From assembly GCA_043799405.1 (NCBI GenBank), contig JAZDNT010000002.1, positions 171,320-235,319 of the forward strand: 64,000 bases of DNA, read 5' to 3'. The position numbers and the translations under genes were made by a program. This document shows positions 28,165 to 60,000 of this stretch, one piece after another (the first letter of the stretch is position 1; every line of letters starts with the position of its first letter). The notes beneath the pieces are model-generated. The model saw only the letters and a program-made list of their open reading frames with translations, was not told the DNA's origin and ran no database searches. This stretch comes from Candidatus Kerfeldbacteria bacterium. Its GTDB lineage: Bacteria > Patescibacteriota > Patescibacteriia > SBBC01.

Positions 28165-28337
28165 GACTTATTGCTGCAATGTCGTCAGTGGAACGTTTTG
28201 TATAGGAATGGCGTCGCGCCATTGAGGATCGCCACATCCTTCTCCGAGCGAAGCGAGGAGTCCCGCAGACCTCGGGACCCCCTCACTAACGTTCAGGGAT
28301 GGAATGAAGCACAATGAGGCGCGACGGGAATGCTTGA

Positions 28338-29390
28338 TCATTTTGATCTCCTTCTCCGTCCATGGAAGGCTTTATATACGTCACGTAATTGTTGATTGGT
28401 GACATGAGTATATATTTGAGTTGTCGTTATCGATGCGTGACCGAGCATTGCCTGCACCGAACGAATGTCCGCGCCGTTAATAAGGAGATCGGTCGCATAG
28501 CTATGTCGGAGCGTATGTGGCGTGATGCGCTTGTTCACGCCGGCGAGCTTCGCGTACATTGCAACGAGCCGCTGGATGCTGCGGGGCGTGAGTCCCGTTA
28601 GAAGCCCTCGTTGAGAAATGCTATGAGACGAATATTGAGTACGCACTTTATTTTTAGTAGCTTCTAACGGGATGAGTTCGTTAATTTCGGACGATCTCGC
28701 AGCAGCGTGGTCGTGACGGATGAACAACGCCTTGTGGTCGTCGCGCCGGGCATTCAAGTACTCGCCGATGAAGTGCCGCGCGTGGTTCGAAAGGAAGACG
28801 ACGCGGTACTTCCCGCCCTTGCCGCGGACCGTGAACTCGTCCTTATTAAGGTTTAGCTCATCGCGCGAGAGCCGCGATAGCTCGGAAACGCGCAAGCCGG
28901 TCGAAAACAGCAGCTCGAGGATCGCCTTGTCGCGGAGCTTGATGATCTCAGGTTCCTTCGTCTTGAGTGGCGCTTCGAGCAGTCGCTCAAGGTCATCCCC
29001 CTCGATGAAGTTCACCTGCCGTTCGGATGTTTTTGCAAGCTCTATCTTTTCCGGGGCAAGCGTAGTAACGTCGTTCTTCGCGAGGTACTTTAAGAAAGAC
29101 CTGAGCGCGATCAGGTGATAGTTCTGCGTTGACTTTGTAAGGCGCTCGCCGCGGTTGTTCAACTGCTGGTTGAGATACAGACGGAAGTCACGGACATCGT
29201 CGAGCGTTATATCCGAAGGCTTTGTTAATTTCGAGTATGCGAGAAAACGCGTAAGGTAAAATTCGTAGTTGCGTTTCGTAAGTTCCGACGCGCCGCGTTC
29301 GACCACGAGCGAGGTGAGGTACCGTTTCACCCACCGCTCAAGCTCGGACGACGTGCCGCCCTCCTTTTTCTGTATCTGGTTGTCTACCAT
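28338..29390 (-). CDS. Tyrosine recombinase, XerC/XerD family
   Basis: The C-terminal catalytic region reads TPHTLRHSYATDLLINGADIRSVQAMLGHASITTTQIYTHV. The N-terminus has an SAM-like core-binding domain. Confidence 0.9.
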   Translation of the reverse strand: MVDNQIQKKEGGTSSELERWVKRYLTSLVVERGASELTKRNYEFYLTRFLAYSKLTKPSDITLDDVRDFRLYLNQQLNNRGERLTKSTQNYHLIALRSFLKYLAKNDVTTLAPEKIELAKTSERQVNFIEGDDLERLLEAPLKTKEPEIIKLRDKAILELLFSTGLRVSELSRLSRDELNLNKDEFTVRGKGGKYRVVFLSNHARHFIGEYLNARRDDHKALFIRHDHAAARSSEINELIPLEATKNKVRTQYSSHSISQRGLLTGLTPRSIQRLVAMYAKLAGVNKRITPHTLRHSYATDLLINGADIRSVQAMLGHASITTTQIYTHVTNQQLRDVYKAFHGRRRRSK

Positions 29391-29440
29391 GATGATATTT
29401 TACGACACTTGGCATTTTTATTCAATTTGCATACGTGAAC

Positions 29441-38469: not shown

Positions 38470-39897
38470 ATGAAAGTGAACCCCCAGATATTCCGCGGCT
38501 ACGACCTTCGCGGTATCGTCAATGAAGACTTGAATCCTGGAATCGTCGAATGTATCGGTAAGGCACATGGGACCTACATGAAACGGAAGGGTATTACGGA
38601 GGCTGTCGTGGCGCGAGACTGCAGGGCGACCAGTGAGGAATACGCTGCTGCACTGATGCGAGGCTATGTCTGGTCAGGAATCGACGTCATCGACATTGGC
38701 ATGAACCTTGTCGGAACGTTTTACTGGTCGCAGTACTATCTCAACCGTCCGGGCGGAGCAATGGTTACCGCCTCGCATAATCCAAAACAGTTCAACGGCT
38801 TTAAGTTTTCCATTGGCTATTCTGAAACGCTCGTATCCGACGGCATGAAAGAATTGCTCCGGATGGTAGAGTCCGATGATTTTGAGCAAGGAGCGCATCC
38901 GGGAAAGGTCACTCAGCGCGATATACGGCAAGCGTACTACGATGACGTTATCAAGAGATTGCCGCTAAAAAGAAAGTTCAAGGTCGTCATTGATCCAAGC
39001 TGTTCGACGGCTGGCGCCATCGCGCCGGATCTGTTCCGTCAGGCGGGGTGCGAGGTTATTGAAAAAAATACTACGATCGATCCAGCCTTCCCGCTCGGCA
39101 CGCCTGATCCGACCGAGCACATTGTTGCAGAACGGTTACGCAATGAGGTAATTGAGTCTAAGGCCGATCTTGGATTCACGTACGATCCTGACGGTGACCG
39201 CATTGGTATCATCGATGAAAAGGGCACAATCATTTGGAACGACGTCCTTGTTGCCCTTTTTGCGATCGATGTCCTTCAGCAGCACCCGGGAGAAAAGATA
39301 ATGTTCAATACGCTGTGCTCGCAGGTCGTGCCGTTGACGATTACTAAGTACGGCGGCGTTCCGTTCATGTGGCGTACCGGCCATTCGTTCTTAAAAAAGA
39401 AGAATCAGGAGATAAAAGCCGCTTTCATCGGCGAACTCTCCGGCCACTTCTTCTTTTCAGCCGATTTTTACAATCACGATGACGGCTTGTATTCCAGTAT
39501 GCGGCTGCTGCACTACCTTGATCATACGAACCAAAGCCTCTCTCAGGCGTTGGCGGGCCTCCCGCAGTACAAATCCAGCCCAGAGATCAAGCTCTTTTGC
39601 GCTGACGATCGCAAGGCGGCGCTCATGGAGAAGATTAGTCCGATCCTGAAAAAGGACTTTCCAGAAGCAGAGATCATTGACGATGAACGGGCCGGCGATG
39701 GAGTTCGGCTCGATCTATCCGATAGCATGTTCGTTGTTCGATATTCTCAGAACGGTCCCTATCTAACGATAAAATTCGAAGCAACCGGCGAACAACAGTA
39801 TACTCGGTTGAAGCAATACATCGGCACATTACTGCATAAGTTTCAGGAAGTGGATTGGACATCGAGTATTAATGTTAACCTTGAGGCGTTAGTATAG
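38470..39897 (+). CDS. Phosphomannomutase/phosphoglucomutase (alpha-D-phosphohexomutase family)
   Basis: Active-site loop TASHNPKQFNGFK, metal loop FTYDPDGDR, and sugar-binding GELSGH. Confidence 0.88.
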   Translation: MKVNPQIFRGYDLRGIVNEDLNPGIVECIGKAHGTYMKRKGITEAVVARDCRATSEEYAAALMRGYVWSGIDVIDIGMNLVGTFYWSQYYLNRPGGAMVTASHNPKQFNGFKFSIGYSETLVSDGMKELLRMVESDDFEQGAHPGKVTQRDIRQAYYDDVIKRLPLKRKFKVVIDPSCSTAGAIAPDLFRQAGCEVIEKNTTIDPAFPLGTPDPTEHIVAERLRNEVIESKADLGFTYDPDGDRIGIIDEKGTIIWNDVLVALFAIDVLQQHPGEKIMFNTLCSQVVPLTITKYGGVPFMWRTGHSFLKKKNQEIKAAFIGELSGHFFFSADFYNHDDGLYSSMRLLHYLDHTNQSLSQALAGLPQYKSSPEIKLFCADDRKAALMEKISPILKKDFPEAEIIDDERAGDGVRLDLSDSMFVVRYSQNGPYLTIKFEATGEQQYTRLKQYIGTLLHKFQEVDWTSSINVNLEALV

Positions 39898-39945
39898 GCG
39901 TTACTCATCTGCTCGTAAGGCATACGTTCATTATTGAGGACTAAG

Positions 39946-41301
39946 ATGATGGCACAACGCCCGTCGATCTACGGCTCGTACGGTATTCGCGGTATTTGGG
40001 GTAAGGATATCGATAGTATCCTCGCGGTAAAGCTCGCGAAAGCATATGTCACCATGAAGAAACCCGGTCGCGTCGGTGTCGGACGGGATGGCCGGGTATC
40101 CAGCAATGATTTTGCGGAAGCGATCATTGTCGGGATGCGTGATGTCGGGGACGACGTGGTTGATTTCGGATTGGTACCAGTCGATGCCTTTTACTTTGCG
40201 GTCGACCGCTACAAGTGCGACGGGGGCGCAATGGTGACTGCGTCGCACAATCCCCCGGAGTGGAATGGTGTAAAGTTTGTGGATGCTCGTGCACAACTGC
40301 TAGTCGGAGAAAAAAACAGTGCGCTTGGTCATATAGCCGAACAGGGTACATTCGTTCCCGTTTCAAGCCACTTTGGTTCCTATAGTGAGATCGATGTCAT
40401 CCCAGACTTCACCTCGTTCATTGTACAGGCGGTGGATTTCACCCGAGTCCGATCGCTGAGGGTCGTCATCGATCCTGGCAACGGTGTATCTGCTCCCGCA
40501 GCAGTTGCGCTCATGCACGCACTTCAGTACAAGTGGTCCGGTATCAACATGGACGTCCACGGACTGTTTCCCGGAAGGGGTCCCGATCCGAAGGAAAAGG
40601 GAGCGCTCGTGGGTCTAAGTCGGGCGGTCCGTGATCGCGGCGTCGATCTCGGCATTTCGTTCGACGCGGACGGCGACAGGATGTTCCTCGTTGATGAGCG
40701 CGGGAGCGAACTCATCGGCGAGGAAACGGGGATCATACTCGCACGGATGTTCCTTACGGAGCACCCAGGCGCACACATCGTCTACAATGTCGTGTGCTCG
40801 CGTATTGTTCCGGAAATGATCACTGCGGCAGGCGGGATCCCGATACGCGCCGGTGTCGGGAGCGTGAACATGGTTCCGGCGATTGTCCGGAGCAAGGCCG
40901 TGATGGGCATCGAGACATCCGGGCACTATATCCAACGAAAATACAACTGCATTGATTCGGGATTGCTCCCTGCTGCATTCGCGCTTAGGGCGATTGCTAC
41001 TGACGGTCGGCCGTTATCGAAGATCAGGGAGGGCTTGGATCCGTATGCCCATGATCGCGTTGAGTTGCACATCGAAGACCACTCAAAAGCACTCGATACG
41101 ATCCGGCAGAGATTCAGCGACGGGATACGCGATGAGCTCGATGGTATAACCGTGGAGTATCCCGATTGGTGGTTCAATGTCCGCCCGTCACGTTCAGAAC
41201 CCTACCTTCGTCTGACAGTAGAAGCTAAACATCGCGATGATATGGAACGGCACAGGGACGAACTGGTACGAATAATTAAAGGAGAATCGACTTTAACGTA
41301 A
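39946..41301 (+). CDS. Second alpha-D-phosphohexomutase paralogue (GlmM/PMM-like)
   Basis: TASHNPPEWNGVK, FDADGDR, GIETSGH. ATG 12 nt inside track ORF 39934..41301. Confidence 0.85.
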   Translation: MMAQRPSIYGSYGIRGIWGKDIDSILAVKLAKAYVTMKKPGRVGVGRDGRVSSNDFAEAIIVGMRDVGDDVVDFGLVPVDAFYFAVDRYKCDGGAMVTASHNPPEWNGVKFVDARAQLLVGEKNSALGHIAEQGTFVPVSSHFGSYSEIDVIPDFTSFIVQAVDFTRVRSLRVVIDPGNGVSAPAAVALMHALQYKWSGINMDVHGLFPGRGPDPKEKGALVGLSRAVRDRGVDLGISFDADGDRMFLVDERGSELIGEETGIILARMFLTEHPGAHIVYNVVCSRIVPEMITAAGGIPIRAGVGSVNMVPAIVRSKAVMGIETSGHYIQRKYNCIDSGLLPAAFALRAIATDGRPLSKIREGLDPYAHDRVELHIEDHSKALDTIRQRFSDGIRDELDGITVEYPDWWFNVRPSRSEPYLRLTVEAKHRDDMERHRDELVRIIKGESTLT

Positions 41302-41413
41302 GGTCGGGGTAGAGTATCGCACGTATGCCACATAATGGCTGTTTTTTGCTACACTACAAGGGTGTGCGTAACCTCGTCCGACTAACAATAGTAGAGGGCC
41401 CTGTCAGTCGGCA

Positions 41414-42016
41414 ATGATGGCTGCGCACAGAGAAAAAGGCACACTGATGAATACTACACACGCGCAGTTGGTAGATGAGGGGCTAGCGGCAGCCGCACAG
41501 GCTGGCGACGAAAGCGCTCTGTCGCAACTCTACGACAGGCACCTCACCCCCCTTTATCGATACATTTTCCGCCACGTGAACCACCTTCAGGACGCGGAAG
41601 ATCTTACCTCAGACGTGATGCTCCGTATGGTCAACAGCCTTCCAACCTACCAGAGAACAGCCTCGTTCAGAACGTGGTTGTACGGCATTGCCCGGCACGC
41701 AATCGCTGATTTTTGGCGATCGAGGTACAAGGTTCGCGAAGAGCTCGTTGCCGATTTTTCCGGGATCGGTGCGAAGCAAGACGAGAGATTCGAGTCAGAG
41801 CCTGCCGATGAATCGTCAGACGTACGTCACATGCGAGCGCAGAAGGTGTTTGAAAAACTTCCGAACCACTATCGTGACGTGCTCCGGTATCGATTCATTG
41901 AACAGCGGACAGTAGCCGAGACCGCGGAGGTAATGGGAATGTCCCACGGCAACGTTAAAGTGCTTCAGTACCGCGCTCTAAAAAAAGCGGCGGTCATTGC
42001 AAAGGAGGTCGTATGA
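41414..42016 (+). CDS. ECF-type RNA polymerase sigma-70 factor
   Basis: Region 2 reads LTPLYRYIFRHVNHLQDAEDLTSDVMLRM..FRTWLYGIARHAIADFWR. Region 4 reads RDVLRYRFIEQRTVAETAEVMGMSHGNVKVLQYRALKK. The start may be the internal MNTTHAQ. Confidence 0.88.
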   Translation: MMAAHREKGTLMNTTHAQLVDEGLAAAAQAGDESALSQLYDRHLTPLYRYIFRHVNHLQDAEDLTSDVMLRMVNSLPTYQRTASFRTWLYGIARHAIADFWRSRYKVREELVADFSGIGAKQDERFESEPADESSDVRHMRAQKVFEKLPNHYRDVLRYRFIEQRTVAETAEVMGMSHGNVKVLQYRALKKAAVIAKEVV

Positions 42017-45000
42017 GTAACAACCCGACAGAAACCACTGACGAGTACCTTGAGTTCCTTGCTGGAAGACGCAAGCAGCCTCCGGTGTTTTCTGATTCCG
42101 ACCGCGACGTTCTCGATGCAGCGAACGCCCTCCGCTCGCTTCGCCATTCTCCAGAACCCTCGCCACATTTTTCTTCATCCTTAAAGAAGGTTGTTATGCG
42201 AACGCCTGATGAGTCATACGCGCCAAAACGTTCGGATACGCGCGCGAAAAAAAGTCGGGGCTTCCTTCCGAACGTGTTTAAGTTCGGAATACCGGCCGTG
42301 GTCATCGCGGGAGTACTAGTTGCGATTGCCATTGTCCCGGATGATTTTTTTACAAAGTTTTTTCACCGGACGCCGCTTAGTTCATATATAGCACAGGAAG
42401 CAAAAGCGGCGACCATCACGCTCGAGGCGACGAAGGGCGATACGCTCGGTGTCGAAGCCGGAACGACCTTTACCCTCAAGGCAGAAGAAGGAACGGTCAC
42501 AGCCGAAGACGTCAAGAGCAACTTCAAGCTCACGCCGGACGTCGCATACAGCGTCAAAGAAAAAGGGAAGAACTCCTTTGAGATCGTTCCTGAGAAAGCC
42601 CTTTCGGAAAAAACAGTCTACACGGCGAGTTATGAGGGATACGCAAAGACCGATAATGGCGCACCTTCGCCGCGCACCTACTCGTGGGCATACCAGGTCA
42701 GGAACGCGTTCCAAATTATAGGAACATTGCCGCGCAATAAGGCAACGAGCGTGGCGCAGGAGACGGGCATCGAGGTCACGTTCAGTTCGAGCGGCGTCTC
42801 CGCGAAGGATTTTGAAAAGAAACTCGACATCTCGCCGAAGACCGACGGACGCGTCGAGGTCCATAACCGGACGCTGGTATTCGTTCCAGCAAAGAAGTTG
42901 AAGGAAAAGTCCGTGTATACGGTTACTGTGAAAAAAGGACTTACGCCGCAGGGAGCATCGGAAGGACTTGCAGAAGACTTCGTGTTCCAATTCGAGGTTA
43001 TGGGCAAATCAAAAGATCAGGATACTGGATATTCACGTATCGTCCCGAGGAATGTGTTCGAGAGCATCCGTCCGAATGAACCGATCGTTTTTGCCGAGTA
43101 CTCGTTCCCGTCGGCGTATAACGAAAAGGACGACACGCGCACGCCGAAGAGCTACGAGTTCACCGTGTACCAGTACAAGGACCTCAACGCTTTTCTTGCC
43201 GCCCTTGAGGAGTATCAGCAGGATGTCGTTCCGTGGTCAATGTACGCCAATGAGGGAACGCTGTACGAAACTAAAGGGCTCACAAAGGTAGGGACGTTCA
43301 AGACGAAAGCGGAGAACGGTGTCATCACTCTCGGTACTAGCTTTTCCGAGGGCTTCTACCTCGCCGACTCAACATCGAACGACACCCACTCTCAGATACC
43401 ATTCCTCGCAAGCCCGATCGGAGCATACGCTGTAGCGACGCAGACCGATACGCTCGTCTGGGTCAACGACCTCGTTAGCAGCGCTCCTGTGAGCGGAGCA
43501 TCTATAGCGCTCCGGAATTCATCGGTAACTGCACAGACCGATGAAAAAGGTATTGCTACGTTCACAACCCCTGATGATATCCGTCAGAACCAGACCGGCG
43601 TCATCTTTGCAACGGTCCGCGCGAACGATAAGGATACCGTGATCCTTGCTAAGGGGAACAGCTACAACTGGTACGGCGGGAATGCATCGATGTACGGCGA
43701 TTCGCTCAAATTGACCTATGCTCCGGAGAAATATTGGAGCTATCTGTCGACCGATCGCAGTCTGTACCTGCCGAACGATACCATCCGTTTCTGGGGCGTT
43801 CTTAAGCGACGTGATAATCCAAAGACGTCCGAGAAGGTGACGATCAGGCTCATACAGACGAACTACGAAGGCCGTTATTCTGCGGATGTCCTAAAGACGC
43901 TCGAGCTTTCGACTAACCAGACCGGTACCTACATCGGCAGCATCGACCTCAATGACGTTTCAACGGTCGGATACCCAGAGATCGTTGTATCGGTCGGAGA
44001 TGAGTGGGTAACGAGCAAGTCCGTTTCAGTCGAAACGTATAAAAAACCTCCCTACCAGATCACGGTGAAGCCTGATCGGTACGCAGTATTCGCTGGCGAA
44101 ACGGCGAACATTACGGTAACGACGACGTTCTTCGACGGTACGCCGGTATCGAACGTCGGATTACGGTTCGAGCAGAACTATGGCGTGAGCAAGCCGGATT
44201 TTTCGACTGATTCGAACGGCAAGGCGGTTTACACGAAGACGTTTGAACGCATGGGGGACCACACGAGCACATCGGACATTTCGGTCGTACCGTTCGAACA
44301 GTACGAAGGCGATATCCGGGGATCGAACCAGGTCATGGTGTACCCTGCCCGGTTCCAGATCGAATCAGAGGGCACTGTACAGGGGGCGAAGGCGGAGGTT
44401 TCCGGTACGGTCCGGAACCTCCACCCCGAGCTCGCCGATCCGACTGCGGATGACCCCTTCAGTAAGGTTGTCGGTGAGGTTCGCCCCAATCAGACGATCG
44501 AGGGAAAGCTCTACGCGACGATAACCGAGGAAATCCCTGATGGGACGTACTATGATTTTCTCTCTAAGAAGGTAGTCGAGCGGTTCCGCTACGAGACGCG
44601 TGAGGAGCTTCGTGAGACGTTCAACGTTACTACCGATCGCAACGGGACCTTCAGTAAAACGTTGACCGTCGATCCAAAGCTCTTCTATCACGTCGATCTA
44701 TCAGGCGTTGATGAAAAGGGTGATACAGCCCGCGATACCGCGTACATCTGGTCACGAGGCGAGTACTACTACTCGAGCGTATATGGCGGAGAAGGAGGGA
44801 GTAGCGTTCCTAACCTGTCACTCGTCGACCTGAATGCCGTAAGCAACCAGTCGAACCCGTCGTACGTACCAGGCGATACGGTTAAGCTCCAGGTGAATCG
44901 CGGAAACAGCGCTGTATCGAAGGATCTTGCGCAAAAAATCCTGTTCATATCGAGCCAGCGAGGACTCCGGAACTTCACTGTTAAGGATTCCCCAACCTAC

Positions 45001-47232
45001 AGCTTCAAATTTAGCGACAGCGATATCCCGATGCTGTATACGCGCGCAGTGGTGTTCACTGGTGTCGGATTTGCCGAACTCTATGGGCCGACAATCGAAT
45101 TCGACAAAACGACGCGGGCGCTTAAGATCGAGATTGTTCCTGACCATGAAACCTACGGCCCTGGTGATACGGCAAAGCTCGATGTACGGGTGACTGATAA
45201 GGACGGCAATGGGCAGCGTGCGCGCGTGAATTTGAGCGCCGTTGACGAAGCTATTATTGCGTTGCAGGGACAGCGATATGACGATCCGCTTGCAATGCTC
45301 TACCGGTGGGTCAGCGAAGGAGTCATCAGCACGTATGCGAGCCATAAGGAGGCGCTGACTTCTGATGTCGGCGCAGAACGGGGCGGCGGTGGCGGCGACC
45401 GTATTGATTTCCGGGACAACGCGCTCTATACCGAGATCGAAACCGACGCAAGCGGGAACGGGACAGTAAGCTACAAGCTTCCCGATAACCTCACGTCGTG
45501 GCGCATAACGGCGCAGGCCGTTACTGACGACCTGAAGGCCGGATTAGATGACCGCGTCGTGTCAGTCCAGAAACCGCTCTTCGTTGTTACCTCGTTTTCG
45601 GACCGGGTCTTAAGCCGTGATAAGCAGAAGCTCGCTGCAACGGCCTACGGAAGCGATCTTTCGGCGGGCGATGCCGTTGACTTCAGTTTTTCCATTGTTG
45701 ACATGCCGGGCACGGAAGCGACGGTTCGCGGAAAAGCGTTCGAGTCGGTAAGCATCGATATTCCGAAACTCGATGTCGGTGACTACAAGGTTCGGGTTTC
45801 TATTACTGCAAAGGATCAGAATGACGCCGTTGTCGAGCCGCTCCACGTCCTCGGCTCGAACCTCATGCAGCGGACGGTGAAGACCGCGTACCTCGAGAAA
45901 GCCGAGACGCCGGTGTTCGCTGCGAGCGGGAGGACGCAGCTTCGGATCGGCGATGCAGACCGGAACCTTGCCTACGACCTGCTGTGGGGTCTTCTCTGGA
46001 GTCCGTACAGTCGTCTTGATGACACGGTCGCAGCGCGTATCGCATCGAACGCGCTCGAGAGCGAATTTAAGGACCAGCCATGGACGTCTCCTGGCGACCC
46101 ATCGGTGTTCATGACCGAGAAGGGTCTTGCGCTGTACGCAATCGGGAGCGAAGACCTTGAGTACGGCGCACTCGCTGCTGCCGATCCTGCATTCATCGAC
46201 AACGCTGGGAAGCTGGTTAGGTGGTTCCGCAGAACGATCGACGATCCAAAGTCGAATACAGAACAGGTTGCCTATGCGCTCTATGGACTTGCGCAGCTGA
46301 AAGAGCCTGTGCTCAATGAGATCAAGACGCTTCTGAAAGTCGAGGGGCTACCGGACCGGGATCAGCTGACGCTCGCACTCGCGCTCGAAACGCTCGGCGC
46401 AAAAGAAGAGGCGCGGCCGATCGCACGGCTCATCCTCGATCGGTACAGCCAGACGCAGGACGAGTACGTGCGTCTGAAGCTCGGCGCAAACGACGACGAG
46501 AAAATCGTGAACACGGCGCGGTTCGCCATACTTGCGGCAAGCCTTGCTCTTAACGAACGGTACGGGCTGATCAAGTACGTTGTCGCAAATCCTCCAAAGG
46601 ATACTTCGACGCACCTTGAAGAGGCGCTTGCCATAGTACGGCTGCTCAAGAACGCCTCGGCCGGTACCGTGAGCGTGACGTATACGTTGAATGGCGCAAG
46701 CGAGACGAAACAGCTGGGAAAGAAGGATGCGCTAACATTGAGCCTGTCTGTTGATGAAGCAAAGACTTTTTCTGTAACCGCCCACACAGGGAACGTGTCC
46801 GTTGTATCGACGTACAGCGAGCCGTTCGATTCCTCGAAGGCCGCTCGGGACGCGAATCTATCGATCAGCCGTAAGTACTCTGTGAGCGGAAAAGCGACGA
46901 CGAAGTTCAAGAAAGGCGATCTCGTGAAGATCGAGTTCACGTGGTCGAAGAAATCCGGTGCGCTCGGCAAGCAGTTCGGCCTCGTCGATCTGCTCCCGGC
47001 TGGACTTCGGGTCGTCAGCAATCCGTGGCTCTTCGATCGCAGCGATCACGTTTACTATCCATACAGCGTCGAGTACAACCGCGCGAAGTTCTACGCGGGT
47101 GACAATATATTCTACTACTATGCGCGGGCGGTTGTGGCCGGTACGGTCATTGCTGAGCCGGTTACCATCCAGGCGTTCGACGCGCCGTCGAACGTCCAGT
47201 ACAGCAGCGAGGCGCCGCTCGTTATCGAATAG
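42013..47232 (+). CDS. Giant membrane-anchored alpha-2-macroglobulin-like protein (no thioester motif seen)
   Basis: ATGA overlap with the sigma gene. Layout: ~95-aa cytoplasmic N-terminus, one TM (FGIPAVVIAGVLVAIAIV), Ig-like repeats, then the A2M hallmark RIDFRDNALYTEIETDASGNGTVSYKLPDNLTSWRITAQAV. There is no CxEQ anywhere. Confidence 0.75.
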   Translation: MSNNPTETTDEYLEFLAGRRKQPPVFSDSDRDVLDAANALRSLRHSPEPSPHFSSSLKKVVMRTPDESYAPKRSDTRAKKSRGFLPNVFKFGIPAVVIAGVLVAIAIVPDDFFTKFFHRTPLSSYIAQEAKAATITLEATKGDTLGVEAGTTFTLKAEEGTVTAEDVKSNFKLTPDVAYSVKEKGKNSFEIVPEKALSEKTVYTASYEGYAKTDNGAPSPRTYSWAYQVRNAFQIIGTLPRNKATSVAQETGIEVTFSSSGVSAKDFEKKLDISPKTDGRVEVHNRTLVFVPAKKLKEKSVYTVTVKKGLTPQGASEGLAEDFVFQFEVMGKSKDQDTGYSRIVPRNVFESIRPNEPIVFAEYSFPSAYNEKDDTRTPKSYEFTVYQYKDLNAFLAALEEYQQDVVPWSMYANEGTLYETKGLTKVGTFKTKAENGVITLGTSFSEGFYLADSTSNDTHSQIPFLASPIGAYAVATQTDTLVWVNDLVSSAPVSGASIALRNSSVTAQTDEKGIATFTTPDDIRQNQTGVIFATVRANDKDTVILAKGNSYNWYGGNASMYGDSLKLTYAPEKYWSYLSTDRSLYLPNDTIRFWGVLKRRDNPKTSEKVTIRLIQTNYEGRYSADVLKTLELSTNQTGTYIGSIDLNDVSTVGYPEIVVSVGDEWVTSKSVSVETYKKPPYQITVKPDRYAVFAGETANITVTTTFFDGTPVSNVGLRFEQNYGVSKPDFSTDSNGKAVYTKTFERMGDHTSTSDISVVPFEQYEGDIRGSNQVMVYPARFQIESEGTVQGAKAEVSGTVRNLHPELADPTADDPFSKVVGEVRPNQTIEGKLYATITEEIPDGTYYDFLSKKVVERFRYETREELRETFNVTTDRNGTFSKTLTVDPKLFYHVDLSGVDEKGDTARDTAYIWSRGEYYYSSVYGGEGGSSVPNLSLVDLNAVSNQSNPSYVPGDTVKLQVNRGNSAVSKDLAQKILFISSQRGLRNFTVKDSPTYSFKFSDSDIPMLYTRAVVFTGVGFAELYGPTIEFDKTTRALKIEIVPDHETYGPGDTAKLDVRVTDKDGNGQRARVNLSAVDEAIIALQGQRYDDPLAMLYRWVSEGVISTYASHKEALTSDVGAERGGGGGDRIDFRDNALYTEIETDASGNGTVSYKLPDNLTSWRITAQAVTDDLKAGLDDRVVSVQKPLFVVTSFSDRVLSRDKQKLAATAYGSDLSAGDAVDFSFSIVDMPGTEATVRGKAFESVSIDIPKLDVGDYKVRVSITAKDQNDAVVEPLHVLGSNLMQRTVKTAYLEKAETPVFAASGRTQLRIGDADRNLAYDLLWGLLWSPYSRLDDTVAARIASNALESEFKDQPWTSPGDPSVFMTEKGLALYAIGSEDLEYGALAAADPAFIDNAGKLVRWFRRTIDDPKSNTEQVAYALYGLAQLKEPVLNEIKTLLKVEGLPDRDQLTLALALETLGAKEEARPIARLILDRYSQTQDEYVRLKLGANDDEKIVNTARFAILAASLALNERYGLIKYVVANPPKDTSTHLEEALAIVRLLKNASAGTVSVTYTLNGASETKQLGKKDALTLSLSVDEAKTFSVTAHTGNVSVVSTYSEPFDSSKAARDANLSISRKYSVSGKATTKFKKGDLVKIEFTWSKKSGALGKQFGLVDLLPAGLRVVSNPWLFDRSDHVYYPYSVEYNRAKFYAGDNIFYYYARAVVAGTVIAEPVTIQAFDAPSNVQYSSEAPLVIE

Positions 47233-47240
47233 GATCGTAC

Positions 47241-48119
47241 ATGCAGCGTCGCGCAGTGGCTTGGAGTATCGGTGTTTTAGCTGTAGCTACCGGGATCGTC
47301 GGCGGTACCCTGTGGATCCGTGGTTTCCAAACGGATCGCAATGCCTCAGCTGCGATCATTCCGGTACAGGATACGAGCTCATGGGCGGTCAATGACGCAT
47401 TCGTAAGAGCTATTCCGTACACAGTACAACCGAAAGGTCGCGTCGTTGCGGGTATCGTGCCGCACCACACCCTCGTCGCTCCGCTGATCGCAGCGTTTTT
47501 CCGTGGACTTGAGGCATCTTACAAACCAGAAACCGTTGTCATTGTCGGGCCTGACCACGAAAATAAGGGAACCGCGTACGTAACGACTGCGAAAAATTCA
47601 TGGGGCACGCCTGATGGCGTTGTTTCGGCAAACCAAGAAATGATCCAGGCGCTTGTTGACCGAGGGGTCGCAGTGTACGACGATGCGCTGATCATACATG
47701 AGCCGAGCGTATCAGCTGCGATTCCATACCTAGCGCATCAGTTTCCAAACGCTTCTATCGTACCGCTCGCTATCCGAGGCGATCTCCGCTCCGACAAACT
47801 CGACCAGCTCGCTGACGCCATCTCTGACCTTATCGGTCCTAACGACCTTCTCATTGCGAGCGTGGATTTTTCTCACTATAAGGATATCGAAGGCGCGCGT
47901 ACTGATGATGAGCGCTCCCTGTCCGTTCTGACAGCTGGCGATGCCGATACTGCTCTCGATATCCCGGTCGATTCTCCGCCGTCGATCTCGCTGCTTCTCC
48001 GGTTTGCGAAGAAGCGCGGACTAACCTATCAGCAGCTCGTACACACAAACTCAGCCGAGTTCCTTAATGACCCGACAATTACCTCGACAACCTCGTACCT
48101 TACCGCTTACTTCTATTGA
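47241..48119 (+). CDS. MEMO1/AmmeMemoRadiSam-B family protein with N-terminal TM anchor
   Basis: VVAGIVPHHTLVAPLI, VVIVGPDHENKG, ASVDFSHY. Confidence 0.6.
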   Translation: MQRRAVAWSIGVLAVATGIVGGTLWIRGFQTDRNASAAIIPVQDTSSWAVNDAFVRAIPYTVQPKGRVVAGIVPHHTLVAPLIAAFFRGLEASYKPETVVIVGPDHENKGTAYVTTAKNSWGTPDGVVSANQEMIQALVDRGVAVYDDALIIHEPSVSAAIPYLAHQFPNASIVPLAIRGDLRSDKLDQLADAISDLIGPNDLLIASVDFSHYKDIEGARTDDERSLSVLTAGDADTALDIPVDSPPSISLLLRFAKKRGLTYQQLVHTNSAEFLNDPTITSTTSYLTAYFY

Positions 48120-49518: not shown

Positions 49519-49721
49519 GCCCAGGAATTTTACAAACCCGATTGCGATACGGAGCGCGATCTGTGTGAAGCGTGTGGCGATAGAAGTTCCTCATGTGCGA
49601 GCCCGTCCGTAGAGGGCGTACATCGAATTTCCAGTAATACAGAAGAGGACGGGAACGCAAAAAGTGCAACAGATAAGCTACCATGCCTGAAAAACCGTGT
49701 CAAATGTGGTACTATGCAACC

Positions 49722-52700
49722 ATGTCGAAGTACGATCACAAGGCGATCGAGGCGAAATGGCGGAAGCGATGGGAGCACGAGAAGCTTGGCATCGCCAAAG
49801 ACGCTTCTTCGTCACCGAAGTCGTACGTACTGGTCGAATTTCCGTATCCCTCCGGCGATGGGCTGCATGTGGGGCACGTACGCTCGTACACAGCGCTCGA
49901 CGCGGTCGTGCGGAAGCTGCGCATGCAAGGGAAGAACGTCCTGTTCCCGATCGGGTGGGACGCGTTCGGGCTGCCGACAGAGAACTACGCGTTAAAAACT
50001 GGCGTGCACCCGCGCGAGGCGACGGACAAGAACATCGCGAACTTCCGGCGGCAGATGAAGTCGCTCGGCCTTTCGTTCGATTGGTCGCGCGAAGTGGACA
50101 CGACTGACCCTGCGTACTACAAATGGACGCAGTGGATTTTCTTGAAATTACTGAAAGCAGGGCTCGCGTACCAGGCGACAATCCCGATCTCGTGGTGCCC
50201 GAAGGATATGATCGGCCTTGCGAACGAGGAGGTCGTTGGTGGAAAGTGCGAGCGGTGCGGAACAACCGTCGAGCGCAGGATGCAGAAGCAGTGGATGCTG
50301 AAGATCACGGCGTACGCGGATCGGTTGCTGAAGGATTTGGACACAGTAGACTACTCGGAGCGAATCAAGACGCAGCAGCAGAACTGGATTGGCAGGAGTG
50401 AGGGAGCGGAAGTGAGGTTTGAGATTCACAAAACGGAAAAACCAGTAGCGCTTATTATCCATGGCAGTCCGCAAGAACCAAACTACTCATTGCAAATGGC
50501 TAGACACTTTTATCCGTGGTTACAGCGCGAACTTCATACGCTTGGTTACGAAGTGATTGCATCTGATCTTCCAAGAGCAAATGCACCAGATTATGAAATA
50601 TGGAAACAAGCGGTCAAAAAGGCGTTAGGGAAGAGCAAGCTCGACCATTCTTCGCTCGTGATCGGAGTCAGCGCTGGCGGGAGTTTTGTAGCGAGGTATT
50701 TGGCCGAGCAGAAAGAATCTGTTGCAAATATTATCTTGATTGCGCCGGCATGCATTGCACGTATAGATGATACCGAACGCGATAATGCACTTCAGAAGCT
50801 TTACACATTCACGTTCGTTCCTGGTATTGCCAAAAACATCACCGTGGTGTATTCAACGGACGATGATGAACGATATATTACCAGTGCGAAAAAATTTATC
50901 AAGGGACTTCATGCACAATCAATCGTACTACCTGGGCGCGGACACTTCACTCAGCACGATGGCGTCAGGGATATTCCGGAGTTGCTTGATTTAATAAACA
51001 AACAGCGATCGATTCAAGTGTTTACTACCCGCGCAGACACGCTGTTCGGCGCGACGTATTTGGTGTTATCGCCAGAACATCCGCTCGTTGATGAAATTAC
51101 GACCGCAAAGCAGAAAAAGGCAGTGGAGAAATACAAGAAAGATGTAGCGAAGAAGTCGGAGCTTGAACGCACTGTGTTGGAAAAGGAAAAAACCGGCGTG
51201 TTCACCGGCGCCTTTGCAGTGAATCCGGTGAACAACGAAAAAATTCCGGTCTGGATCGCGGACTACGTGCTCATAAGTTACGGCACGGGCGCGATCATGG
51301 CAGTCCCTGCGCACGATGAGCGCGATTTCGAATTTGCTACGAAATTCAAGCTGCCGATCCGTGAGGTCATTGTTCCGGAGTTTGAGGACGAAGGTTCGAA
51401 GCGGCAAGCCGGAAAACCAACAGTAATTCGAAAAACCGTGTACGCGCTTTTGCGTAATCCGAAGAACGACACCTACCTCTGTCTCAACTGGAACGATTAT
51501 TACTGGAATACGCTGATCATCGGCGGCGTTGACGGCGATGATCCTGTTGAAGCGGCGAAAAAGGAAATTGCCGAAGAAACGGGTTTCACCAACGTCCGGT
51601 ATGTCAGATCCCTTGGCCGCCAGATAGGACACTACTATGCCGCGCACAAGGAAGAAAACCGCGTTGCCGACGCCGTCGGGCTATTGTTCGACCTTCTTGA
51701 TGAGGAACGGACGGAAGTGAAGCAGGAAGAACTCAAGAAACACACGCCGAAATGGTTGACGCGGGATGAGGTCGGAGCATTCCTAAACATCTCGTCGCAG
51801 CGGTACGTGTGGGAACGATATTGCGCGGGAACGGGCGCGTACATCGGAGAAGGCAGGATGATCGATTCGGGCCAGTTCGATGGCATGAAGAGCAAGGAGG
51901 GCGGGAAGAAGATCGTCGCGATGTTGGAAAAAGAAGGAAAAGCAAAACCCGCTGTGAACTACAAGCTCCGCGACTGGGTGTTCTCGCGGCAGCACTACTG
52001 GGGCGAGCCGATCCCGGTCGTGCACTGCGAGCACTGCAAGGCGGAAGCAGAATCGACGAAGTGGAAGCTGAATTTCTACGAAGGTCCGTGGCGAGCATTG
52101 CAATCCGGTGAAAAAACCGTTGAGACGCGCGCGTTGAATCCTGACGAGAAGGATCGATACTTCGTCGACATCAAGGTCGGTGACATCATTAAGGGATCTC
52201 TCAAAGGCATGGATGAGACGATGTACCTTCGTGTGACAGAACGGTATCTATTGAAAGATCTCAAAGAGCTGTACGGAAGAAAGGACCTGCTCGGGCAATT
52301 GAGAAGGAATTTCTCACCGACGCTGGATGAATTGCGACGGTTCTATTCATTGACGCCGGACTACCTCGAACGCATTGAGAAGAACGGACTCGTCGCATGG
52401 AAGGTCGAACACGTGATGCCGGGCGTCGTGCCGATTTCCGAAAAGGACTTGCCCGTTGAACTTCCGCAGGTCAAAAAATACCAGCCGTCGGGCACTGGAA
52501 AATCTCCCCTCGATGGGATCAAGGAATGGGTGAACGTGAAGTGCCCGCACTGCGGCGGACCGGCGAGGCGCGAGACCGACACCATGCCGAACTGGGCTGG
52601 CTCGTCGTGGTATTTCTTACGCTACTGCGATCCGAAGAACGACAAGGAGCTCGCAAGCATGAAGAAGCTCAAGTACTGGATGCCGGTCGATCTCTACAAC

Positions 52701-53498
52701 GGCGGCATGGAACACACGACGCTGCACCTTTTGTACTCACGTTTCTGGCACAAGTTCCTCTTTGATGAGAAATTGGTACCAACGCCTGAACCGTACCAAC
52801 GGCGCGTTTCTCACGGCATGGTGCTCGCAAGCGACGGAAGGAAGATGTCGAAAAGCTTCGGAAACGTAATCAACCCCGACGAGCTCATAGAGCAGTACGG
52901 CGCAGACAGCGTGCGGCTCTATGAAATGTTCATGGGGCCGTTCGAAGACGCGATTCCGTGGGATCCGAAGGGGATCGTGGGGATGAGAAGATTCCTACAG
53001 CGTGTGTGGGATGCGCGAGAAAAAGTTGTTGAGAATAAGACCATACTTTTAAGCGAACTCGAGGGGGCTGGTACAGCACATGAGGTTTCGAAAGGTATTA
53101 ATGAGATGCGTTTCAATACCTGTATTAGTGATTTAATGAAATGGGTGAATCGTTGGAATAACGAAAAAACGATTAATCGTCGTGAATATGGGATTTTTCT
53201 GAAAGTGTTGTCGCCCTTTGCGCCATATATCGCTGAAGAACTATGGAATCAATTAGGCAATGGACATTTATTGCTGCATGAGAGTTGGCCACGCACAGAG
53301 CGTTGGATGAAAAAGGATGTAACCATTGCTATTCAGGTGAACGGTAAGCTCCGCGGCACGCTCACAGTATCGAGCGGTTCGGAGCAGGAAATTGTTGCTT
53401 CAAAAGCAATGGAATTGGACAATGTGAAGAAGTTTATGGCCGGCGATCCGAAAAAGGTCATCTTCGTGAAGGATCGGTTGATTAATTTTGTTGTGTGA
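49722..53498 (+). CDS. leuS: Leucyl-tRNA synthetase with three inserted accessory domains
   Basis: YPSGDGLHVGHVRSY (HIGH), WDAFGLPTEN, VFTTRADTLFGATY (CP1 editing), AVPAHDERDFEFA, NYKLRDWVFSRQHYWGEPIP, KMSKSFGN (KMSKS). It is about 1258 aa, versus the ~800-860 aa I recall for typical bacterial LeuRS. Confidence 0.95.
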   Translation: MSKYDHKAIEAKWRKRWEHEKLGIAKDASSSPKSYVLVEFPYPSGDGLHVGHVRSYTALDAVVRKLRMQGKNVLFPIGWDAFGLPTENYALKTGVHPREATDKNIANFRRQMKSLGLSFDWSREVDTTDPAYYKWTQWIFLKLLKAGLAYQATIPISWCPKDMIGLANEEVVGGKCERCGTTVERRMQKQWMLKITAYADRLLKDLDTVDYSERIKTQQQNWIGRSEGAEVRFEIHKTEKPVALIIHGSPQEPNYSLQMARHFYPWLQRELHTLGYEVIASDLPRANAPDYEIWKQAVKKALGKSKLDHSSLVIGVSAGGSFVARYLAEQKESVANIILIAPACIARIDDTERDNALQKLYTFTFVPGIAKNITVVYSTDDDERYITSAKKFIKGLHAQSIVLPGRGHFTQHDGVRDIPELLDLINKQRSIQVFTTRADTLFGATYLVLSPEHPLVDEITTAKQKKAVEKYKKDVAKKSELERTVLEKEKTGVFTGAFAVNPVNNEKIPVWIADYVLISYGTGAIMAVPAHDERDFEFATKFKLPIREVIVPEFEDEGSKRQAGKPTVIRKTVYALLRNPKNDTYLCLNWNDYYWNTLIIGGVDGDDPVEAAKKEIAEETGFTNVRYVRSLGRQIGHYYAAHKEENRVADAVGLLFDLLDEERTEVKQEELKKHTPKWLTRDEVGAFLNISSQRYVWERYCAGTGAYIGEGRMIDSGQFDGMKSKEGGKKIVAMLEKEGKAKPAVNYKLRDWVFSRQHYWGEPIPVVHCEHCKAEAESTKWKLNFYEGPWRALQSGEKTVETRALNPDEKDRYFVDIKVGDIIKGSLKGMDETMYLRVTERYLLKDLKELYGRKDLLGQLRRNFSPTLDELRRFYSLTPDYLERIEKNGLVAWKVEHVMPGVVPISEKDLPVELPQVKKYQPSGTGKSPLDGIKEWVNVKCPHCGGPARRETDTMPNWAGSSWYFLRYCDPKNDKELASMKKLKYWMPVDLYNGGMEHTTLHLLYSRFWHKFLFDEKLVPTPEPYQRRVSHGMVLASDGRKMSKSFGNVINPDELIEQYGADSVRLYEMFMGPFEDAIPWDPKGIVGMRRFLQRVWDAREKVVENKTILLSELEGAGTAHEVSKGINEMRFNTCISDLMKWVNRWNNEKTINRREYGIFLKVLSPFAPYIAEELWNQLGNGHLLLHESWPRTERWMKKDVTIAIQVNGKLRGTLTVSSGSEQEIVASKAMELDNVKKFMAGDPKKVIFVKDRLINFVV
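50427..51011 (+). other. leuS insertion 1: alpha/beta-hydrolase (YdeN/RBBP9-like serine hydrolase) domain
   Basis: It lies between ..GAEVRFEI and IQVFTTRADT. PVALIIHGSP..., nucleophile elbow VIGVSAGGS, and C-terminal LPGRGHF. It is visibly more AT-rich than the flanking leuS sequence. Confidence 0.6.
51380..51830 (+). other. leuS insertion 2: NUDIX hydrolase domain
   Basis: Nudix box GGVDGDDPVEAAKKEIAEETGF, located between PIREVIVPE and GAYIGEGRMIDSGQFDG. Confidence 0.65.
52038..52418 (+). other. leuS insertion 3: ASCH/PUA-like domain
   Basis: It lies between HCEHC and GVVPISEKDLPVELP. WRALQSGEKTVETRALN...IKVGDII resembles the ASCH N-terminal signature. Confidence 0.5.
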
Positions 53499-56993: not shown

Positions 56994-57070
56994 TACGAGT
57001 GAAAAACTGTTTCGAACAACACGTCACGAAATCTCCCCCGTTACGAAAGGTTAGCGTCTTTAGCGCTAGA

Positions 57071-60000
57071 ATGACGCGCATCGTTGTATCCACGGTGCTC
57101 GTTGGATTTTCTCTCCTCGCCCTGACCTCGTCCGTACATCCGCAACCGGCGAGCGCCCAATTCCTCGATCCGACCTACCTCGGAGAACAAATGAATCAAT
57201 ATTCGGATGCTGTAAGCGATACAATGCAAAATGCCGTTGGCGGCGCTCTTTCGCAACCTGTAAACGTTGTCGCTAACCCCATCTCGACGAAACAACGGTT
57301 CATGGATAAAGTTCTGGCCAGGATAAAAGCAATACTGAAGGCCGCCGGAGACGTTGCGTATAAAACGAGCGTCAGGATCTTTTACCAGCAGCTCGCGAAC
57401 GTCACGACCGAGTTCATCCGGACAGCGGGAACCGGCATGAAGCCGATATTCATCACTGATCCGCACTACTGGGAGAAGGTCTTGGTCGGGGCGCAGAACG
57501 ACTTCCTCGACTCGATGGCGCAGGACGTTTTCGGGGTCGACCTCGCTGCTCCTGACGTTGAAAAGGAGAAGCAGATAGGCCTCCTCGTTAGGGGAGTATT
57601 AAACCCGGGGACCGTTTGCGAGGACGCGGTCGTGAAAGAGTACAACGAGAAGCAGGACTACATCGCGAAGATCAGCAAAGCGCTCGATAAGGCGAACCAG
57701 GACAAACGAGACGCGAAAAAGCAGCAACAGTCGGGCACCGCAGGCACGTACTCCATCTTCTGCCCGGTCGTCGGCGACATGACGAAAGATGCGAGGTTCA
57801 CAACGAGGGATGGCGAGGGGCAGTGGTCAGACCCGAACCTCTGTATAAACACCCTTGAGAGCATTCTATCCGAGGAACGCGCGCTCGCGACAAAGACCTT
57901 TACGAACAGGATGCAGGCATGCCGTAACAGCAGGGCATCGGTCCGGACCGACCCCATCTTAAAGGAGACGGTCGGTAATGAAGCAGTTGCTGCTGCTGTC
58001 CAGGAGTACTACGATCCGCGCAAGAACGATTTCGGCAACATCCTTGAGCTCTTGAACAAATCAGCTGACCGATCGCAGAGCGCTGTTTCAGCCGAGCAGA
58101 CCGCAATGAATACGCGCATCGCACCTCGGCGTACGACCGCGGGTCTTATCACGGCTCCGGCGGTCCTCGTCGAGGAGTACACGAAGCAGGCACTTTCAAA
58201 ATCGACCGAAGATATCAGCGTTTACACCGGCACGAAATTCGCCGACGTGATCTCGAGAGCGATCGGTAACGCCTTGATACAGCGAATCATGTACGAGTGG
58301 TTTAGGAAGCAGTGCGGCCTCAATCCGGACGCCTGCAAGGCGCCTTCAGGCACATCCCAGCAGGCACGGATCGTGTTCGGAAGTTCGACGAACGCGGAGG
58401 TCCGAAAGGTTTCGCTCGGTAAACCTACGATAATCGCCGGAGAACCTGGTCGTAATGCGACGCCAACCATAGACCTGATCGAATCGCAGGGGATCATCGA
58501 CCAGAGGTTCCGCGAAGCTATCGAGGAGCAGCTAACGGTCCAAGAGGCGATCGACAAGGGGCTCATTGACGGATCGAAGACCTTCGGGTTCGATCAGAGC
58601 AACAATATGGCGCTCGACGGTTACTCGTACCAGACGATCCTCTACCTTCGCAAAGCGCGCGTCGTTCCGGTAGGATGGCAGCTCGCGGCAGAGTACAAGT
58701 ACAAAGCGAGCGCCGCTGCATCGAGCCTCGGTGAACTCGCGTATAGCTTTGACGTATGCGGGCAGGACGAGTTCCACGACGACGATCCGCGGGTAACGAA
58801 GTACTGTACCGGCGGCTCCAAAGCCGATTCGGTCTGTACCGATAATAACGACTGCACCGGCGGCGGAACCTGCCTTGAGCGGTTCACGCCAAGCCCGTAC
58901 TGCGGCCTCGTCGATCCGGACTGGGTGCTTAAGGCTCCGCTCTCGTACTGCCGGAAGCAGGGCGCAGGAGAGGAGCTGGTCTCGAAGATATACCTCTGTG
59001 ACGATGATACAAACGGGAACGGCAGGGTCGACTGCAGCAACAACACAACAACGGGCGGAGACATCGGCCACTTCGATATCCAGCGCACCGAGGACACCTG
59101 CGTCGATGAGCCGACGTGCGTTGCTGAGAACGAGGACGGCTCGTGCCTCTCCTACGGATACTGCTTCGAGGATCGGCGGACGTTCCGCTTTGACGGCGAC
59201 CAGTGTCCGTCGTACTACAACTCGTGCCAGGCGTACTCGAATGCCGCAGGGGAGAGCGTCGCGTACCTTACGAAGACGATCGACAGGAACGGCTGTTCAT
59301 CCGATAACGCCGGCTGCTATGCATACTGCGGCGACCGGAGCGGTAGCAGCAAGAAGTGGATGTGCGTATCCGATCCTGGCATCGAAGGCGACTATCAGAG
59401 CGTCGCGTGTACTGCTGGCGATACCTGTACGTGCCACAACGCCGACGGCGAGACGTGTGCCATTTCCAACGGCACAGACCAGTGCACGCTGCCGTCAGGA
59501 CTCTTGTGCGTTCTCGGAAAGAACTACCTCTTCTTCAACAGGAACGCCGAGCAGTGCGATTCGACCGATGCCGGATGCCGAAAGTATATCGATACGATCG
59601 CGCCGACGAACCTCCTCGGGAATTCGAGCTTCGAGGCGATAAGTGGAGGCACAATTCCTGGCTGGGGTGGGCCACTACAGAGCGTTACGAGCGACCTGAC
59701 GCTTTCAGGCGATAATAAGTTAGCAGCAAAAATTCCTTCGGGAAGCAATCTCTTCTATTCGAATAACAAGATTGGTAACGAAGCCGGTATCGACACTGGC
59801 CGCCCGATCAGTTTCCAGACGTTCACGTTCTCATACTACGGTAAGGCAGAAGCGAACTCGTGCGGCGGGACGTTCGGCGTCCGGACGCCTGACGGAGCGT
59901 ATACCGATCAGTCGCCGACGAACGCTGTATACATTAATACGGCATGGCAGCGTTTCACCCATACCTTTACCGTTCCTGACCTCGGGTATGACAATGATAT

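Follow-up and report, generated by a model that had tools for sequence, protein, structure and literature searches.

An extracytoplasmic function sigma factor gene joined to an alpha-2-macroglobulin-like candidate anti-sigma factor and an exported Memo-like protein in Kerfeldbacteria

RseA, RsiW and RsiV are single-pass membrane anti-sigma factors under regulated proteolysis, and RsgI, found with SigI in C. thermocellum, has a functional sensor ectodomain. Here we describe a locus that recalls these systems, in a 64-kb stretch of DNA (the window) from a metagenome-assembled genome (MAG) of Candidatus Kerfeldbacteria (Patescibacteria/candidate phyla radiation, CPR). Three open reading frames (ORFs) on the same strand (41414-48119, +) form a compact unit encoding an extracytoplasmic function (ECF) sigma factor, a giant alpha-2-macroglobulin (A2M)-like protein and a Memo-like protein. 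The explanation that fits best, and that we hold with evenly balanced confidence, is an operon for a sigma factor, an anti-sigma factor with an A2M ectodomain and an exported Memo protein.

With RseA, RsiW, RsiV and RsgI the locus shares the order of sigma gene followed by (candidate) anti-sigma gene, translational coupling, a short helical cytoplasmic N-terminus, one transmembrane (TM) segment, a putative extracytoplasmic sensor and a likely autoregulated operon. It differs from them in that the ectodomain is an A2M fold of ~1630 amino acids (aa) and that a Memo-like enzyme belongs to the unit; moreover, the cytoplasmic domain has neither a zinc motif nor detectable similarity to class I domains, the RsiW/RseA/RskA type with its three-helix bundle and fourth helix. 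The RsbN-BldN pair of Streptomyces offers a second comparison, RsbN being a class III anti-sigma domain of three helices that is restricted to Streptomyces (PMC6101532). The window sigma factor is nearest to the BldN family, and the N-terminus of the A2M-like protein has three predicted helices in ~60-90 aa followed by a TM segment; however, this N-terminus has no sequence or fold match to RsbN, and the sigma factor scores below the BldN cutoff. In class III RsbN a long alpha-3 is clamped between sigma-2 and sigma-4; the three-helix layout predicted for the window N-terminus and its BldN-like sigma factor recall the class III pair by resemblance only. We know of no A2M-type ectodomain on RsbN.

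Among bacterial macroglobulins, ECAM (YfhM) and Salmonella A2M are of the thioester type and are paired with PBP1c, and YfaS/MagD is of the thioester-less type. The window protein shares with all of them a fold of MG, bait-region, TED-like and MG10 domains and anchoring at the outer face of the cytoplasmic membrane, and with YfaS/MagD also the missing thioester. In contrast to ECAM/YfhM, it has a TM helix with a cytoplasmic domain, an N-terminal Big_5 domain and no lipobox Cys, and its partner is Memo, not pbpC or mag/yfa. The Cys-free family to which it belongs is found, unlike ECAM/YfhM and YfaS/MagD, in Patescibacteria, Chloroflexota and Bacillota.

The sigma-A2M junction and its conservation

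The original prediction was that an ECF sigma gene is coupled by ATGA to the gene of a 1739-aa membrane-anchored A2M-like protein and is followed by a Memo-like gene, and the ORFs and their junctions bear this out:

41414-42016, + strand: ECF (group 4) sigma-70 factor, ORF of 200 aa (Pfam, TIGR02937)
42013-47232, + strand: A2M-like protein, ORF of 1739 aa
47241-48119, + strand: Memo / AmmeMemoRadiSam-B-like protein, membrane-anchored and extracytoplasmic, ORF of 292 aa (Pfam, TIGR04336)

The sigma and A2M-like genes overlap by 4 nucleotides (nt) in the ATGA at 42013-42016, with an AGGAGG Shine-Dalgarno sequence ahead of it inside the 3' end of the sigma gene; the giant protein sits, as had been proposed, directly downstream of the sigma gene in the position of an anti-sigma factor. 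The 8-nt gap predicted between the A2M-like stop codon and the Memo-like ATG is likewise present in the sequence. The A2M-like and Memo-like proteins are 100% identical to NCBI MFH0828885.1 and MFH0828886.1, respectively.

The first protein matches the Pfam domains Sigma70_r2 (63.7 bits) and Sigma70_r4_2 (46.6 bits) and no others, and at 98.4 bits it clears the 42.9-bit cutoff of the sigma70-ECF model TIGR02937, which by sequence assigns it to the ECF (group 4) sigma-70 factors. Its nearest NCBIfam family is BldN (TIGR02952), where its 111.7 bits lie below the equivalog cutoff of 206.45; BldN is, by this score, its nearest family only, and the protein falls outside the equivalog. The top PDB match is 6dxo (E = 4e-20), which we take to show BldN bound to RsbN. 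Because homologous sigma factors begin at the residue equivalent to Met12 (41447), and because the protein collection contains both neighbouring proteins but lacks a 200-aa version of this one, the true start is probably 41447 and not 41414; an AAAAAGG stretch precedes Met12.

At least 581 related loci came up in a genome-wide scan, with Patescibacteria, Chloroflexota and Bacillota as their sources. We retrieved 80 of these, and 77 non-redundant loci were scored with hidden Markov models (HMMs) built from sigma and Memo seeds. The order sigma-A2M-Memo is kept in relatives whose A2M-like proteins are 65%, 44%, 32% and 28% identical to that of the window and whose flanking genes differ. The 77 loci were then divided by the presence of an ECF sigma gene directly upstream on the same strand and by the length of the A2M-like protein before its first TM segment, split at 40 aa:

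At least 40 aa before the first TM segment: 21 loci with sigma, 6 without
Fewer than 40 aa before the first TM segment: 0 loci with sigma, 50 without

A sigma gene thus accompanies the extension in 21/27 loci and its absence in 0/50 (Fisher p = 7.4e-14). Three of the six loci with an extension and no sigma gene are start-codon artefacts, and the rest have unrelated or low-complexity N-termini. The sigma-linked N-termini are of several sequence types, every one of them sigma-linked. These results tie the cytoplasmic extension to the upstream sigma gene, and comparative genomics strongly supports its reading as an anti-sigma domain; the original prediction had staked itself on the adjacency being conserved in relatives, and conserved it is. 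The identities of the sigma factors and of the ectodomains also correlate (Mantel r = 0.72, reached in 0/2000 permutations), a co-divergence that is consistent with co-inheritance; shared vertical descent alone could explain it, which lessens its value for the anti-sigma reading.

Several loci of this family (L008, L012, L015, L020, L033, L057, L066, L076, L085-L087) come from public MAG records titled 'uncultured Gammaproteobacteria bacterium'. Some of them show Patescibacteria-type sigma factors and N-termini, and L008 encodes a protein 79% identical to the Kerfeldbacteria one; these taxonomic labels are probably wrong.

The cytoplasmic N-terminus as a candidate anti-sigma domain

Two features were delimited at the N-terminus of the A2M-like protein:

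42013..42207, + strand: cytoplasmic N-terminal domain, aa 1-65, candidate anti-sigma domain (conservation, AlphaFold2 (AF2), co-occurrence with sigma)
42274..42342, + strand: single TM helix, aa ~88-110 (hydropathy; AF2 helix 87-107)

AF2 predicts helices at aa 5-16, 28-44 and 51-62, and within the close clade the motifs YLEFLAGR and P-x-P-x-F-xxx-L-K-xx-V are conserved. A basic linker (RAKKSR) precedes the TM helix and acidic residues follow it, so that by the positive-inside rule the topology would be N-in/C-out. The original prediction had given the protein a cytoplasmic N-terminus of ~95 aa with no Cys/His zinc motif and a single TM segment. The missing motif and the single segment stand: the first 100 aa hold no Cys and two His, hence no HxxxCxxC, and Pfam zf-HC2 finds no match to the window N-terminus even at E up to 10. 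The length does not, since the hydrophobic segment FGIPAVVIAGVLVAIAIV at aa 91-108 leaves a cytoplasmic part of ~87-90 aa.

Searched by phmmer against 1.84 billion representative proteins, the N-terminus is found only on the Cys-free A2M-like family, and so the domain is not seen on small stand-alone anti-sigma factors. Between its sequence types, hhalign aligns Kerfeld-type with Uhrbacteria/Magasanikbacteria-type N-termini weakly, over a P-x-F-xx-L helix (E = 4.7e-4, probability 14%), and gives nothing significant with the 'rlDeAL' type. Four results speak against an anti-sigma function. The AF2 model of the N-terminus is moderately confident (pLDDT 65, pTM 0.22); N-terminal profiles compared with the PDB match no anti-sigma factor, RsbN included; Foldseek with the N-terminal model returns no match; and hhalign against a 113-sequence zinc anti-sigma (ZAS) profile gives P = 0.017 over 11 residues with a probability of 2.7%. 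The comparison with known anti-sigma domains that the original prediction had proposed gave no match to any class among the PDB profiles, zf-HC2 and the ZAS profile.

Precedents for the architecture come from other A2M proteins. P0058, a member of the Cys-free family with 29% identity to the window protein, matches zf-HC2 at its N-terminus just above the cutoff (22.6 against 22.2 bits), and a sigma-2-containing gene lies 150 nt upstream of it. P0103, a more distant A2M, has a full TED and represents a family of at least 646 proteins whose source names are Gemmataceae, Pirellulales and Tepidisphaerales, and the best 120 of these were analysed (P0103, P0117-P0235). HxxxCxxC stands at about aa 31 in 113 of the 120, in 106 the first TM segment begins no earlier than aa 45 (at about aa 84 in those inspected), and CxEQ is present in all 120. 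At the three P0103-family loci inspected an ECF sigma gene lies 15-39 nt upstream (3/3) and there is no Memo gene; two of them are arranged as follows:

L088: sigma 3405-3968, A2M 4001-8803
L089: sigma 3417-3962, A2M 4001-8743

The Planctomycetota family thus shares with the window an ECF sigma gene immediately upstream, an N-terminal cytoplasmic domain, a single TM segment and an A2M ectodomain, and differs from it in its HxxxCxxC motif, its complete TED with CxEQ, its A2M_recep domain and the lack of a Memo neighbour. Its sigma factors are 26-31% identical to the window sigma, which indicates an independent lineage. Since P0058 and the P0103 family both show it, the order of anti-sigma domain, TM segment and A2M downstream of an ECF sigma gene is recurrent and probably arose more than once.

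A different account would make the sigma factor a mere co-transcribed activator of the A2M-like and Memo-like genes, controlled elsewhere; the N-terminus of the A2M-like protein would then have no part in sigma binding and would serve, for instance, in membrane targeting, localisation or oligomerisation. The failure of the N-terminus to match any anti-sigma class agrees with it, as do L020, L023 and L075, which have long N-termini of other types and no sigma gene. However, a sigma gene never occurs without the extension (0/50 loci); the sigma and A2M-like genes overlap by 4 nt, leaving no room for another anti-sigma gene; and canonical anti-sigma domains hold the same position on other A2Ms downstream of ECF sigma genes. 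We consider this account improbable. That the A2M-like protein binds and inhibits its cognate sigma factor as an anti-sigma factor is, judged indirectly from strict co-occurrence and gene overlap, quite likely. The role of sensor and anti-sigma factor that the original prediction gave it is supported by the adjacency down to 28-32% identity, by the link to the extension and by the zf-HC2 precedents, and falls short in the matching of an anti-sigma class.

In a full-text search no literature was found that links macroglobulins with anti-sigma or ECF factors, Patescibacteria or Planctomycetes, the planctomycete ECF papers PMC3497475 and PMC7286433 being outside its coverage, so that prior mention is possible; nothing relevant was found on A2M with Memo. 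The ECF reclassification paper has no A2M-anti-sigma link in its main text, its supplements being outside coverage. No paper describing the Planctomycetota ZAS-TM-A2M family was found either, and automated labels exist: JGI annotation names three P0103-family proteins 'anti-sigma factor RsiW'. What would be new here is a sigma/anti-sigma pair with a new class of sensor and an unclassified sigma-associated domain.

The A2M-fold ectodomain, its Memo partner and the proposed release signal

The mechanism that we propose would begin with the three-helix cytoplasmic N-terminus (aa 1-65) sequestering the sigma factor at the membrane, the ~1630-aa extracytoplasmic, Cys-free A2M-fold part acting as sensor and the Memo-like protein as an exported enzyme partner of the ectodomain. 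Proteolytic damage or processing of the ectodomain, by a cut in an exposed Gly-rich loop at the bait position or by wholesale trimming, would leave a stub; intramembrane and cytoplasmic proteolysis would then remove the stub and free the sigma factor. Free sigma would transcribe at least its own operon from a GTAACC-N5-CGACT element upstream of its gene and so replenish the A2M/Memo surface module. The ectodomain carries the following features:

42703..43995, + strand: N-terminal ectodomain with Big_5 Ig-like (aa 231-327), bMG3 (469-546) and MG2 (577-661) domains (Pfam)
44851..45264, + strand: A2M bait-region domain, aa 947-1084 (Pfam A2M_BRD, 42.9 bits; within the AF2 model)
45325..45399, + strand: flexible Gly-rich loop at the bait position, aa ~1105-1129, ...GAERGGGGGD (low pLDDT, conservation)
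45421..45642, + strand: A2M family domain (MG7-like) containing LPDNLTSWRITAQAV at 45478-45522 (Pfam A2M, 40.8 bits)
45955..46650, + strand: all-helical TED-like domain, aa ~1315-1546, without thioester (AF2 secondary structure)
46861..47187, + strand: C-terminal bMG10-like domain, aa 1617-1725 (Pfam bMG10, E = 4.9e-4, below cutoff; fold within the Foldseek matches)

The Pfam domains of the protein are Big_5, bMG3, MG2, A2M_BRD, A2M and bMG10; Pfam TED_complement does not match it, nor does any NCBIfam model. The Ig-like repeats and the A2M hallmark that had been read from the sequence are recovered as Big_5 and A2M matches, with LPDNLTSWRITAQAV at aa 1156-1170. Sequence similarity to solved A2Ms is negligible (TEP1 alone, E = 0.0085). 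An AF2 model of aa 540-1739, built from a 42-sequence alignment (pLDDT 84.5, pTM 0.74), matches over its whole length E. coli ECAM (5a42, E = 6e-49), Salmonella A2M (4u48), CD109, C3/C5 and TEP1 in Foldseek, with E values of 1e-49 to 1e-30. By these matches the predicted multi-MG architecture confirms that the protein belongs to the alpha-2-macroglobulin/thioester-protein superfamily.

The absence of a CxEQ thioester motif, also part of the original prediction, holds in a stronger form, since there is no Cys in the 1739 aa and no such motif is possible. It extends to the whole Cys-free family, because the sole 'CLEQ', in the relative P0066, lies in a non-conserved column and was rejected as a thioester.

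At the bait position, where the chain passes from the bait-region domain to the MG7-like A2M domain, the Gly-rich loop is predicted to be disordered (pLDDT <50 at residues 566-588 of the AF2 model, protein aa ~1105-1127), and family members share its motif GAExGGGGGxRxDF almost without change. In many Patescibacteria (Parcubacteria-type) relatives a HINT domain (PF07591, 50-57 bits) interrupts precisely this loop, among them P0025, P0026, P0034, P0043, P0051, P0054 and P0063 and the loci L080, L084, L085 and L087; in the window the corresponding site is 45370-45399. The insert follows 'GAEGGG', starts with 'CF(L/T)xGT' (e.g., 'CFLAGT') and ends with 'YVHN', the next residue being Q/S/D/E, and it occurs both with a sigma gene (L084) and without one (L080, L085, L087). 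A splicing intein is unlikely, as the +1 residue is Q/S/D/E and not consistently C/S/T; by its sequence pattern the insert fits a self-cleaving, bacterial-intein-like domain better. Because relatives carry a self-cleaving-looking HINT at this place, scission at the bait-position loop is suggested to be part of the biology of the family.

The Memo-like protein scores 69.2 bits with Pfam Memo and, at 99.6 bits, exceeds the cutoff of 26 for TIGR04336 AmmeMemoSam_B. It resembles AmmeMemoRadiSam B and MEMO1 in this HMM score above the curated cutoff and in its conserved His-containing motifs VPHH, GPDH and DFSHY; it differs from them in being exported or membrane-anchored (predicted N-terminal TM segment at aa ~6-26) and in having an A2M-like partner, with no AMMECR1 or radical-SAM gene among the annotated flanking genes in the window. 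Of 64 Memo homologues, at least 50 start with a TM segment or a lipobox/lipoprotein signal. A Memo gene lies downstream of the A2M-like gene in 55/77 loci (17/21 with sigma, 38/56 without), and the pair is present in Clostridia, where the sigma gene and the N-terminal domain are both absent. The original prediction of a MEMO protein without its usual partners was right and understated the case: on the evidence of gene order and sequence, the A2M-like proteins of Bacillota, Chloroflexota and Patescibacteria have the exported Memo as their conserved partner, irrespective of sigma. As Memo follows A2M with or without sigma and no further neighbour shows conservation, the extracytoplasmic A2M-like/Memo pair is the more deeply conserved unit. 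The sigma gene, like the cytoplasmic domain, is an addition to this pair, found mainly in Patescibacteria; besides sigma there is no conserved upstream neighbour among 66 loci.

Proteolysis as the release signal we consider possible, with the balance leaning somewhat against it. A protein without Cys cannot trap covalently, and the family-wide absence of the thioester, which is confirmed, weakens the trap part of a protease model; the AF2 ectodomain model is nearer to activated ECAM (4ziq, TM score 0.59) than to the spring-loaded form (5a42, TM score 0.35); and the bait-position loop is conserved, unlike the variable baits of true macroglobulins. The same absence of a thioester, non-hypervariable loop and activated-like conformation keep open another explanation, rather unlikely in our judgement, by which the ectodomain serves an anti-sigma factor and senses something other than proteases: contact with a host cell, the condition of the wall or S-layer, a compound that Memo makes or consumes, or simply how abundant or well exported it is itself, and this last would amount to homeostatic negative feedback or an assembly checkpoint. 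The conserved exported enzyme partner, which suggests a dedicated biochemical function, fits this explanation too, as does the organism, since a CPR bacterium such as Kerfeldbacteria is probably an episymbiont. It is at odds with the whole-length A2M fold, whose bait position coincides with a disordered loop, and with the self-cleaving-type HINT that relatives insert there. The Planctomycetota analogues also count against it, in that they retain a full thioester TED and so make a true protease trap compatible with anti-sigma wiring.

Taken furthest, the proteolytic release that we propose would make A2M-fold proteins an undescribed class of anti-sigma sensor, in which cleavage of the bait loop, followed by a conformational change or by loss of the ectodomain, turns surface proteolysis into transcription. 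Such a class would have arisen independently in Planctomycetota, with a thioester and a zinc anti-sigma domain, and in Patescibacteria, with a Cys-free ectodomain, a new three-helix sigma-binding domain and a Memo partner. We advance this generalisation tentatively and think it doubtful.

Upstream elements, neighbouring genes and significance

Two elements lie upstream of the sigma gene:

41343..41355, + strand: TTTTTGCTACACT, like an extended -10 (TGnTAnnnT) promoter element (conservation; putative function)
41368..41384, + strand: GTAACC-N5-CGACTA, putative ECF autoregulatory promoter (-35 GTAACC) or operator (conservation)

GTAACC and CGACT are invariant across six loci whose A2M-like proteins range from 32 to 80% identity. 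TTTTTGCTACACT is kept in the window, L001 and L008, appears as TGCTATCCT in L002 and is absent from L005 and L015; an extended -10-like element, TGCTACACT, lies ahead of GTAACC-N5-CGACT in 4/6 loci. Beyond the window, a scan of all other loci found GTAACC-N5-CGACT confined to the position directly upstream of sigma in the Kerfeld-like clade. From this conservation, GTAACC could serve an autoregulated ECF promoter as its -35 element, and a TAGAG-like element that is also conserved lies ~17 nt downstream. Whether the sigma factor autoregulates its operon is, in our estimate, an even call; the GTAACC-N5-CGACT spacing is incompatible with a simple -35/-10 pair, and a motif search for a regulon found GTAACC-N5-CGACTA as a single exact copy in the 64-kb window, so that no regulon is defined, and both results count against autoregulation. 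A scan with consensus promoters and terminators gave no more sites than in shuffled sequence.

The annotated neighbours of the A2M-like gene in the window are sigma, Memo, phosphoglucomutase/phosphomannomutase and a LysM-M23 peptidase, and PADLOC returned zero matches. Phosphoglucomutase/phosphomannomutase-family genes adjoin sigma-A2M-Memo in three differently arranged loci (the window, with two paralogues at 38470-41301, +; L001, 12143-13570; L002, 3536-4861). Across the wider A2M-like family they are not among the commonest upstream-neighbour families, and the adjacency may hint at a link to envelope-precursor synthesis.

Elsewhere in the window, a second giant ORF (56999-62539, +; 1846 aa), whose sole domain match is a CBM_4_9 carbohydrate-binding domain, probably encodes another large surface protein. 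A leucyl-tRNA synthetase of 1271 aa (49683-53498, +) is far above the usual length of the bacterial enzyme and has internal matches to Ser_hydrolase/alpha-beta-hydrolase (aa ~257-438) and NUDIX (aa 583-699) domains. The stretch 23000-29400 is low in GC (0.39 at 24001-26000 against ~0.55 elsewhere); it holds a 501-aa ORF without Pfam match (23924-25429) between tRNA-His (23090-23163) and tRNA-Arg (26451-26525), with a tyrosine integrase/recombinase gene nearby (28338-29390, -), and may be an integrated element.

ECF sigma factors paired with anti-sigma factors make up a major signalling device of bacteria, and for most of these pairs the input is unknown. An anti-sigma sensor with an A2M fold suggests a concrete one, namely surface proteolysis or the loss of a protective surface protein, and the sigma-A2M wiring extends over at least two or three phyla and hundreds of sequences. 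The biology of bacterial A2Ms likewise reaches past the Gram-negative periplasm, to a large family of Cys-free, TM-anchored proteins in Bacillota, Chloroflexota and CPR bacteria that comes with an exported Memo-like partner. CPR genomes are tiny and hold few regulators, and the keeping of a dedicated sigma factor suggests that this module matters for a surface-dependent lifestyle.

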